A stretch of 15,218 nt of DNA, taken from NCBI GenBank assembly GCA_030587475.2, contig JAUQYZ020000002.1, positions 1 to 15,218 on the forward strand, in the 5' to 3' direction. This DNA comes from Candidatus Sigynarchaeum calidifontis (GTDB taxonomy: Archaea > Asgardarchaeota > Lokiarchaeia > Sigyniarchaeales > Sigyniarchaeaceae). Shown one piece after another: positions 4,912 to 10,388 of the stretch (within the stretch, counting starts at the first letter, position 1; each line of letters starts with the position of its first letter). A program made the position numbers and the translations under genes. The notes under the pieces are model-generated. The model made no database searches and was not told the DNA's origin. It worked only from the letters and a program-made list of their open reading frames with translations.

Positions 4912-4983
4912 TGACCCCTTCATTTCGAGCAATCAGATAGAAAGTGAAAGGATCGAGTCGCGCGAGTCGATGAATGTACTGGT
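4912..4983 (-). repeat. Diverged copy of 7637-7708 containing an ORB-like core
   Basis: Ungapped alignment 50/72 identical, with GACCCCTTCATTTCGAG identical at 4913-4929 and 7638-7654. Confidence 0.75.
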
Positions 4984-6288: not shown

Positions 6289-6332
6289 CATCATCGACAA
6301 CGATGGTCAGGTTATAAACGCCGACCCGGGTT

Positions 6333-6391
6333 CAGGTCGAGGCCGAGCAGCCGCGGTTGGTCCGCCATGATGGCTCGCCTTTTCGCCTTTC
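6333..6391. repeat. Direct repeat, copy 1 (start of actin-like gene)
   Basis: 51/59 identical to 7546-7604, with the first 21 nt identical. Minus strand 6368-6312 reads MADQPRLLGLDLNPGRRL*. Confidence 0.85.
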
Positions 6392-7350: not shown

Positions 7351-7581
7351 TTACTGTAAATGTTTACATGATCTTGCTTTGTGCCCGATCTCGCCGAGCT
7401 CGGGGTAAATCCAATGGCCGCGAAGCTGGACAGCGTGGGAGATCGGCAGCTGCGGGCTCATCTCCTTGAGATAGCCGATGGCGGGCGGCACGGCCACGGC
7501 GGGCGCGGGGGTACCGGCGAAGTCGCAATGCACGGCACGCGGGCGCAGGTCGAGGCCGAGCAGCCGAGGTTGAGACGCCAT
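7351..7581 (-). pseudogene. N-terminal fragment of an actin-related protein (76-aa ORF)
   Basis: DLRPRAVHCDFAGTPAPAVAVPPAIGY aligns without gaps to actin [27 protein letters not shown] (9/27 identical, including FAG, AP, P, G). Confidence 0.55.
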
Positions 7582-7604
7582 GAAGGTTCGCTTTTTCGCG
7601 TTTC
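7546..7604. repeat. Direct repeat, copy 2 (start of actin-like gene)
   Basis: 51/59 identical to 6333-6391 at an offset of 1213 bp. Confidence 0.85.
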
Positions 7605-7638
7605 GATTGCCGGACGAAGACAATAATTGCTATGTCAG

Positions 7639-7890
7639 ACCCCTTCATTTCGAGTGACCGGATCGCAGATCGAAGGGTTGAATCACGCAAGCCAATGAAG
7701 TTGCTAGTTTCTTCCGGTATTAAGTTCTGGATTAATACAGACGTATATAAAATGGCAAACAAAGAACTAACGGGTATTTCTAATTTTATCATTAGCGATT
7801 GTTAACTTTACGAACTCATCCTTTCTAATTTTACCTGGTTCCACTCGAAACGGGGGGGTGACTTGGCGGACGGGATGCCATCAAGTGTAA
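7639..7890. other. Candidate replication origin: inverted ORB-like boxes flanking an AT-rich region
   Basis: Plus strand 7838-7859 GTTCCACTCGAAACGGGGGGGT and minus strand 7660-7639 CGGTCACTCGAAATGAAGGGGT. 7721-7830 is 78/110 A+T. Mini-ORB-like TTACACTTGA on the minus strand at 7890-7881. Confidence 0.55.
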
Positions 7891-8270
7891 GACACGTTCA
7901 CGCCTTGTGAATTCCGTACATCCGTGTCCTCGGATTCCTGATGCTTTCACGCGGGTCGGCAGCTCGCGGAACAAGCTTCTTATACGTCGAGAAATTCGAT
8001 CGGGTTACTAGCATGGGGATAGAGGGCCGTGCCCGTGAAAGCGTCGTGTGGACGGGCGGGACGGCCGACAAAAATGCTTTTTTGATCGAACAATGCCGCC
8101 CTCCGTGGTTTTTGTCGTACGCAGGAGCAGGACGGAACCGGGCGGTTTTTCGTGGGCTCGTTCACGAATAGTTCGAATCGGAAGATTTTTTCTCGGGCTC
8201 GTGAATTTCTGAACCGCGTGGACATATTTTCCAGGTATATACGCGGAAACATGTCAACCGACAAATTCAT

Positions 8271-8285
8271 AAAAAAGTTTAAAAG
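8271..8285 (+). promoter_or_regulatory. BRE/TATA-like promoter of the winged-helix gene
   Basis: AAAAAAG-TTTAAAA upstream of SD GGAGGT (8368-8373) and ATG 8381. Confidence 0.5.
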
Positions 8286-8380
8286 TGCATGAGCGGAAAA
8301 ACTACTTGGAGCTGGCACGTTTTTCGCGACCTTTTCGGGCGGAAAACCTGGCACTTCACACACGCGCGGAGGTACCCTTC

Positions 8381-8656
8381 ATGGAATCCGATTCTCACGT
8401 TTCGTCAAGCCTCTCGAACGAGAGGAGCAAGTCGATTTCGCCAATCGAGGCCCAATTGATCTCGGTTTTGAAAGAAGGAGGGCCATTAACACGGGATCAG
8501 CTGGTCAAGAAGCTGTCGATCCCGCGAACCACGATTTACGACGGGTTGAAGAAGCTCATGCAGCGAAACGAGGTCAAGAAATACCCGTTTTACCAACCGG
8601 AACGAGCCCGTGGCCGGCCACATGTCCTCTTTTCGCTGCTAGATGACAAGAAGTAA
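8381..8656 (+). CDS. Small winged-helix DNA-binding protein (TrmB N-terminal-like)
   Basis: LKEGGPLTRDQLVKKLSIPRTTIYDGLKKL HTH and RGRP wing. Strong SD sequence. Confidence 0.88.
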   Translation: MESDSHVSSSLSNERSKSISPIEAQLISVLKEGGPLTRDQLVKKLSIPRTTIYDGLKKLMQRNEVKKYPFYQPERARGRPHVLFSLLDDKK

Positions 8657-9110: not shown

Positions 9111-9674
9111 ATGTCATTGCAAACATTTATCTTGAAAATCGTCGTCGGGGGCGCTGGCGGCGTTGGGAAGACCACGTTGCTGCACCGGTACCTGCACGGG
9201 CTTTTCAAGGACGACACGACGATGACCATCGGCGTTTCGTTCGTCACCAAGGAGGTAACGCGGCCGAACGCGAAGATCAAGCTCAGCCTGTGGGACCTGG
9301 GCGGCCAGGACAGGTTCCGGTTCTTGCAGAAAAGTTACATCCAGGGTGCCAGGGCGGGCATCGTGTTTTTCGACATGACTCGCATCGACACGATGGTGCA
9401 AGTCAAGGATTGGGTCACCATGTTCCGGGAATGCGTTTCGCCCCAGATGCCCATCGTGCTCGCGGGCGCCAAGTATGACCTGGTCGATCCGGGCATGCTG
9501 GAGACCACGAACGAGTTCGCGATGGAGACGCTGAACCAGCTCAACCTGTCGACCTACTTTATGACGTCATCCAGGACCGGCATGAACGTCAACGAGCTCT
9601 TCAACTATTTGGTCGACGTGATCATCGGCCAGCCTTGTCATGAGAAGGTCTCCGCGGCGGCGACGGTCGAGTGA
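9111..9674 (+). CDS. Ras-superfamily (Rab-like) small GTPase
   Basis: G1 GAGGVGKTT, G2 TIG, G3 WDLGGQ, G4 AKYD, G5 TSSR. RabF-like motifs IGVSF, KLSLW, RFRFLQ, YIQGA, VFFDMT. Confidence 0.95.
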   Translation: MSLQTFILKIVVGGAGGVGKTTLLHRYLHGLFKDDTTMTIGVSFVTKEVTRPNAKIKLSLWDLGGQDRFRFLQKSYIQGARAGIVFFDMTRIDTMVQVKDWVTMFRECVSPQMPIVLAGAKYDLVDPGMLETTNEFAMETLNQLNLSTYFMTSSRTGMNVNELFNYLVDVIIGQPCHEKVSAAATVE

Positions 9675-9833: not shown

Positions 9834-10388
9834 ATGTCCGAAGAAACATACATTTTCAAGGTCGTGGTCGGCGGCGCGGGCGGCGTGGGGAAGACCACGT
9901 TGCTCCACAGGTATCTGCACGGCAAGTTCCTTCCTGGCTCGGCCATGACCATCGGTGTCGAGTTTCACAGCAAGGACATTTACTTGAACCAGCTGCAGAA
10001 AAAGATAAAGCTCGCCTTGTGGGACCTGGGCGGCCAGCAGCGCTTCCGGTTCTTACAATCGGGTTATTCTGCCGGCGCGAAAGCCGGCATCGTGTTTTTT
10101 GACATGACCCGCATCGACACGATGGACCAAGTCAAGGATTGGGTTAACATGTTTCGCAAGCACGCGTCCCCGGGCTTGCCCATCTTGCTCGGCGGGACCA
10201 AGCTTGACCTGGTGGATGCTGACGTGATCGAGCAGGTGAACCATTACGCCAGGGAAACGGCCGCCAATCTCTGCATGCCGGCGTACATCGCCACGTCATC
10301 GAAGACCGGGCAAGGCGTGAACGAGATCTTCACGTACATCGTCGACACGCTCGTCGTGCAGTCTCAAGATGCGAAGGAAAGAAGTTGA
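9834..10388 (+). CDS. Ras-superfamily (Rab-like) small GTPase, tandem paralogue
   Basis: G1 GAGGVGKTT, G2 TIG, G3 WDLGGQ, G4 TKLD, G5 TSSK. RabF-like motifs IGVEF, KLALW, RFRFLQ, YSAGA, VFFDMT. Confidence 0.95.
   Translation: MSEETYIFKVVVGGAGGVGKTTLLHRYLHGKFLPGSAMTIGVEFHSKDIYLNQLQKKIKLALWDLGGQQRFRFLQSGYSAGAKAGIVFFDMTRIDTMDQVKDWVNMFRKHASPGLPILLGGTKLDLVDADVIEQVNHYARETAANLCMPAYIATSSKTGQGVNEIFTYIVDTLVVQSQDAKERS

Follow-up and report, generated by a model that had tools for sequence, protein, structure and literature searches.

Does a pair of inverted boxes around a short non-coding spacer, on a contig that carries no initiator gene, mark the place where an Asgard archaeon begins to copy its chromosome? 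The question is raised by contig JAUQYZ020000002.1 of Candidatus Sigynarchaeum calidifontis (Lokiarchaeia), which was analysed over its entire length of 15.2 kb (15,218 nucleotides; the window, C169 of the source genome G000). G000 comprises 4.99 Mb in 269 contigs with 54% G+C. A preliminary description, made from the letters of the window, had proposed positions 7639 to 7890 as a candidate replication origin in which inverted origin recognition boxes (ORBs), the binding sites of Orc1/Cdc6, flank an AT-rich duplex-unwinding element (DUE), and had suggested a genome-wide motif scan, a cumulative skew analysis and a comparison with relatives as checks. We conclude that 7639-7859 is likely an oriC1-type Orc1/Cdc6 chromosomal replication origin. 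The proposal of an origin is upheld by the fit of the boxes to the ORB consensus, their polarity, the AT-rich non-coding spacer, the restriction to a single locus, syntenic conservation and the existence of counterparts adjacent to orc1.

No paper was found in the literature that defines an Asgard replication origin experimentally or describes origins of this build; bulk computational predictions of origins exist (10.64898/2026.08.15.744077). Relatives were compared at the level of the family using four genomes, namely G000, the congeneric G002, G003, and G001, a closed genome of 3,705,313 bp that belongs to a different genus of the same family.

Results

The two 22-nt elements of the preliminary description are present in inverted orientation with 177 bp between them. 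The left box (7639-7660, minus strand) reads CGGTCACTCGAAATGAAGGGGT, the right box (7838-7859, plus strand) reads GTTCCACTCGAAACGGGGGGGT, and the two are identical at 15/18 positions over their last 18 nt. The ORB consensus has been given as CTTCCAGTGGAAACGAAAGGGGT for archaea (PMC4153887) and as GTTCCAGTGGAAAC-AAA-GGGGG for euryarchaea (PMC1868953), and real ORBs of Methanomassiliicoccales end with GAAATGA-AGGGGT, for example GTTCCAGTGGAAATGA-AGGGGT (PMC4153887). By our count, the right box matches the Methanomassiliicoccales consensus (PMC4153887) at 18/22 positions, while the GAAA-N4-GGGGT half of the left box is intact and its GAAATGAAGGGGT is letter-identical to real ORBs, giving the locus two ORBs that fit the consensus of dyad and G-string. 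A search with the exact consensus pattern in one genome per prokaryotic species listed 80 loci, approximately 76 of them archaeal and from many phyla. Judged by their wording, the boxes are matches to a pan-archaeal ORB.

The genome-wide scan revealed that the motif is not scattered. The pattern CACTCGAAAYGNNGGGG with at most two mismatches has three matches in the window, compared with 0.07 expected from shuffles, and CTCGAAAYGNNGGGG has four exact matches in the genome, of which three are located on this contig. The right box is the only full TCCA-N3-GAAA-N4-GGGG match in all of G000 that has a partner, and the full box pair is confined to one locus. The third match in the window lies inside the toxin-antitoxin (TA) island to the left of the boxes, where positions 4913-4983 are 70% identical to 7638-7708; this degenerated duplicate of the left box, together with 55 nt of spacer, has kept GAAATGAAGGGGT and lost the dyad.

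The inverted repeat, which bounds a 221-bp stretch with an AT-rich interior and has a partial second copy at 4913-4983, could also form the ends of a short transposable unit, close the stem of a structured RNA or be a product of chance. We consider this extremely improbable in view of the chance expectation given above, the occurrence of one locus per genome in syntenic position in four genomes, and the lack of both an Rfam match and covariation between the arms. A miniature inverted-repeat transposable element was rejected, as G000 has one full copy that occupies a syntenic position in relatives and dispersed copies were not found; a structured RNA was rejected on the Rfam result and the failure of the arms to co-vary. 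Neither a tRNA nor an Rfam family is present in the contig. In 11/16 pairs by our own count, the arms differ from each other at the variable positions of the dyad, so the boxes would act as separate protein sites and not as a base-paired stem.

The spacer between the boxes (7661-7837; 177 bp, 64% A+T) is the candidate DUE. For its core at 7721-7830, described before as 71% A+T, we measured 70.9% compared with 46.7% for the whole contig, and by nearest-neighbour stability only one 60-bp window on the contig is less stable than that starting at 7774. A high A+T content is not distinctive by itself, as it is matched by other intergenic gaps within the TA island. Relative to congeneric G002, the spacer is 76-90% identical, and its substitutions are distributed over the codon positions as 14/19/12 without periodicity. 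A coding reading of the left box was considered because translation of open reading frame (ORF) 7632-7805 gives a peptide similar to that from the decayed copy at 4913-4983. It was rejected, since substitutions in this ORF relative to G002 are not enriched at third positions (18/13/15). Given that the substitution phase lacks codon bias, we regard the spacer together with its overlapping ORFs as non-coding, which leaves an easily melted, AT-rich and non-coding interval between the boxes.

Parts of the spacer are conserved beyond its base composition. The 20-mer CAAGCCAATGAAGTTGCTAG at 7688-7707 is identical in G001, and an alignment of the four family genomes revealed a central conserved block, TATATAAA ... 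AAAGAACTAACGGG, at 7744-7774, whose form common to all four spacers is TATATAAA...AAAGAACTNAYGGG and whose location resembles that of the Sulfolobus ucm. In the spacers of another family of the class, f4, which have 80-90% A+T, a mid-spacer GC island of the AATAGGGCCCAG type is strongly conserved and is located approximately 60 bp from the ORB proximal to a small winged helix-turn-helix (wHTH) gene (loci L149 and L166-L182). By analogy of its position with that of the ucm element of Sulfolobus, this island, whose wording differs from that of the block in the window, could serve as a binding site. We looked for a mid-spacer motif shared by every Asgard class, and none was evident.

The preliminary description had raised the caveat that the G-strings of the boxes point away from the spacer. 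This concern is dispelled by a survey of 80 fetched ORB loci from other archaea, in which pairs were scored at a separation of 30-450 bp and the outward orientation proved to be the usual polarity. Pairs of the (-)(+) type, with the minus box on the left and the plus box on the right as in the window, form the commonest class (48 versus 20 of the (+)(-) type). AT-enriched spacers are those of the (-)(+) class (for example 0.80 vs 0.69, 0.88 vs 0.70 and 0.78 vs 0.53), whereas (+)(-) spacers are at background composition. The order ORB(-)/DUE/ORB(+) is also named as the minimal functional origin pattern in the Ori-Finder-Arch preprint (10.64898/2026.08.15.744077). The layout of the window, being that of the commonest and AT-enriched class and in agreement with this pattern, is therefore canonical.

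The comparison with relatives showed that the boxes are kept at a syntenic site, with the ORB-spacer-ORB module present in a single copy in 4/4 family genomes. A strict pattern detected exactly one (-)/(+) pair each in G000, G001 and G002; G003 has one such pair on a single contig, and 2 Mb of G001 background contained none. The orthologous boxes of G001, TTCCAGTGGAAATCGTGGGGT (left) and TTCCACTCGAAATCAAGGGGT, are near-perfect ORBs in the same inverted layout at 2,151,360-2,151,577. G002 retains the two boxes, the wHTH gene and the first of two downstream GTPase genes, as well as the spacer, which is 81% identical over 7684-7860. The left flank of G002 is unrelated to that of the window, and synteny therefore ends at the left box; the TA island, which is missing from G002, is a variable flank of the putative origin.

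At the level of the class, 30 wHTH loci were fetched, and a pair was counted if situated within 1.5 kb of the wHTH gene. A (-)/(+) ORB pair was found at 16/30 loci with spacers of 137-181 bp (137-149 bp in family f4, 141-181 bp in family f1), and the A+T content of these spacers, 57-90% (79-90% in f4, 57-72% in f1), exceeds the local background in all 16 pairs. The sole close inverted pair of the f4 genomes G030, G051 and G088 adjoins the wHTH gene; a single box lies near this gene in G072 and no box match was seen near it in G158, both of family f4. In family f3, dyads of the form TCCAATGGAAA occur downstream of the wHTH gene at a distance of 0.5-1 kb.

Three Cdc6_C matches are present in G000, on contigs C49, C47 and C100, and the contigs that carry the ORBs in G000, G002, G003, G006, G010 and G032 contain none. 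In closed G001, cdc6 genes are found at 1.18 and 2.50 Mb and the ORBs at 2.151 Mb, the nearest cdc6 gene being 346 kb away. Beside the cdc6 genes of G000 itself, no ORB-like motifs were detected with the patterns used. An adjacent initiator gene, a typical though not universal feature of such origins, is found in the Asgard families f8, f19, f23 and f24, where a distance of 1-2 kb separates the ORB pair and the wHTH gene from the Orc1/Cdc6 gene with the highest score. An example is the closed 1.42-Mb genome G246, with ORBs at 622,652-622,884, the wHTH gene at 623,081-623,293 and Cdc6_C at 625,230-625,502. Because the modules of these four families adjoin the top Orc1/Cdc6 gene, we regard the locus in the window as the counterpart of an orc1-linked oriC1. 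The origin-adjacent Orc1 of G246 has its best G000 match on C49 (E 9e-30).

The small wHTH gene next to the boxes (8381-8656, plus strand) encodes 91 amino acids, and 8381 is probably its true start. It is a single-copy gene in G000 and was found in 129/161 genomes of the class and in 164/268 higher-quality genomes of the phylum; across the Asgard lineages examined, the ORB module is always located next to a wHTH gene of about 90 residues. The recognition helix PRTTIYD and the wing RGRP are invariant, and the substitution phase identifies both this gene and the Ras genes downstream as coding. An AlphaFold model displays a classic winged helix (predicted local distance difference test, pLDDT, 77.5), whose nearest sequence and fold matches are generic, including MarR, Lrs14/AbfR2, the Lrp N-terminal domain, Z-alpha and AspA. 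A relationship to the winged helix of Orc1 or MCM was rejected, as no such entry is listed by the sequence and fold searches.

The wHTH gene has the appearance of an ancient companion of the origin, and the earlier picture of an orphan origin next to a TA island requires a correction: orc1 is indeed absent, but the conserved wHTH gene is a constant neighbour. That the Lrs14/MarR-like protein is a dedicated origin factor is a tentative suggestion. Such a factor would bind the mid-spacer element or the ORB dyads to license, restrain or position initiation, and this role would explain why the gene remained at the origin after the departure of orc1.

A different role for the neighbour would be that of a regulator, with the boxes being merely ORB-like operators for the wHTH protein or another transcription factor. 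Its gene is the one constant neighbour, the invariant recognition helix implies an invariant DNA target nearby, and the dyad is palindrome-like. However, the asymmetric G-string is typical of Orc1 sites, the boxes fit the consensus of distant phyla without the wHTH gene (found at 1/80 ORB loci), and orc1 adjoins the same boxes in other classes. Moreover, the promoter-like element of the wHTH gene precedes the start codon by approximately 100 nt and is separated from the nearest box by roughly 430 bp, and the f4 boxes lie past the 3' end of the gene and therefore are not its promoter operator. We consider an operator function of the boxes very unlikely.

The segment between the right box and the wHTH gene (7860-8380, plus strand) was recognized by alignment as a conserved non-coding leader without an Rfam match. 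Two ORFs in it, 7941 on the plus and 7980 on the minus strand, lack codon-phase bias, and the promoter-like element mentioned above, AAAAAAGTTTAAAAGT, is found at about 8270-8300. A block at approximately 8025-8115, which precedes the wHTH gene by about 300 nt, is kept across genera and contains four or five CCGTG/CACGG repeats as well as an inverted repeat, CGACAAAAA/TTTTTGTCG, with two compensatory pairs that derive from three sequences only. This block could be an array of transcription-factor sites or a small structured RNA. At 7881-7890 on the minus strand, a mini-ORB (TTACACTTGA) had been counted as part of the origin; it lies where conservation across the locus is lowest (52-60% identity to G002) and is probably due to chance. 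YGTGAA/TGTGAA boxes are likewise not conserved in the family, with seven occurrences at 7600-8400 compared with two each in G002, G001 and G003.

The genes around the locus diverge roughly as had been claimed. To the left are toxin-antitoxin genes of the PIN/MazE/RHH types on the minus strand, accompanied by a Fic gene and by fragments of genes, and to the right, the plus-strand wHTH gene and two plus-strand genes for Ras-family GTPases are followed by a hydrolase and a restriction-modification methylase. Besides the decayed box copy, the TA island contains a second segmental duplication, with 84%-identical copies at 6324-6391 and 7537-7604 that both cover the beginning of a truncated gene (MA(S/D)QPRLLGLDL...) and its leader; the island beside the origin seems to have grown via repeated insertion and duplication. 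The GTPase genes downstream of the wHTH gene (9111-9674 and 9834-10388) are tandem paralogues of the Ras/Roc family with 84% identical stretches, the first of which is the one shared with G002.

Discussion

If the window harbors an origin, initiation would proceed from one Orc1/Cdc6 monomer at each box. The winged helix of the initiator would contact the TCCA-N3-GAAA dyad beside the spacer and the AAA+ domain the outward G-string, and the two opposed initiators would load MCM at the AT-rich spacer of 177 bp, causing this spacer to melt. The initiator would be encoded elsewhere in the genome, the Orc1 on C49 being the best candidate, and in this class orc1 would have lost the linkage to the origin that other Asgard classes display.

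Several observations count against this interpretation. The 5' dyad half of the left box is degenerate (GGTCA instead of the consensus TTCCA), only 15/22 positions of this box match the Methanomassiliicoccales consensus (PMC4153887), and the locus possesses just two good boxes, while Ori-Finder-Arch demands at least three if no initiator gene is adjacent (10.64898/2026.08.15.744077). The missing cdc6/orc1 neighbour, already pointed out in the preliminary description, extends to the whole contig, on which no Cdc6_C match and hence no initiator gene was found. The Cdc6_C domains of the G000 family score weakly (best E 1e-11) versus 1e-28 to 1e-32 in other Asgard families; because of these scores and the lack of a match on the contig, the cognate initiator is uncertain. 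The ORBs of the family are canonical despite the weak Cdc6_C scores of its Orc1 proteins. Finally, the cumulative skew analysis provided no signal at the orthologous locus of closed G001: neither GC skew, AT skew nor ORF strand bias (100 samples of 20 kb) switches at 2.151 Mb or elsewhere. This result fits the published remark that genomes of Lokiarchaeia, Heimdallarchaeia and Odinarchaeia provide no skew evidence of bidirectional replication (PMC11291895).

The absent skew signal in G001, the unlinked orc1 and the degenerate left dyad would also be compatible with real Orc1/Cdc6 sites at a silent locus. Such a locus could be an origin that is dormant or a relic, or a place where Orc1 acts on transcription or chromatin, with replication starting elsewhere or by recombination. 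Dormant origins and origin-independent growth have been documented in other archaea (PMC4595724; Hawkins 2013, cited at second hand). A relic, however, should erode in the way seen at 4913-4983, whereas the boxes, the spacer length and the central spacer motifs are kept over distances from family to class, and G000 has no second ORB cluster. A silent site is thus unlikely in our opinion, and we adhere to an oriC1-type origin at 7639-7859.

Among known systems, oriC1 of Sulfolobus/Saccharolobus, in which ORB3 and ORB2 flank a DUE and are bound by Orc1-1 while the central ucm is bound by UBP (PMC12141716), shares with the locus the two inverted ORBs around an AT-rich spacer of comparable scale (130 bp there, 221 bp from outer edge to outer edge here), the dyad and G-string wording of the boxes and a short conserved mid-spacer element. 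In contrast to the locus described here, the Sulfolobus origin has orc1-1 beside it and a third box, ORB1, and the two mid-spacer motifs are worded differently. The neighbour protein here is a winged helix, whereas UBP adopts a beta-sheet fold and its gene is located away from the origin. The Methanomassiliicoccales pairs (PMC4153887, Table 2) are worded nearly identically (...CAGTGGAAATGA-AGGGGT), are inverted and are in some cases located away from orc1, although the main pairs adjoin orc1/cdc6.1 (PMC4153887), unlike here.

An ORB(-)/DUE/ORB(+) core unlinked to an initiator gene also constitutes the main oriC of Hyperthermus butylicus (10.64898/2026.08.15.744077), a member of a different phylum for which no conserved wHTH companion is reported. 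The same boxes, polarity and wHTH family and a similar spacer length are found at the Asgard loci of G246, G243, G164, G227 and G242; these differ in that the best Orc1/Cdc6 gene is 1-2 kb away, with a third ORB before it in some of them.

The locus shows, within one phylum, an origin that would have become uncoupled from its initiator gene. With one ORB-DUE-ORB module per genome, anchored by the wHTH gene, it offers a precise site at which the putative origin may be studied in cultured or enriched Asgard archaea.
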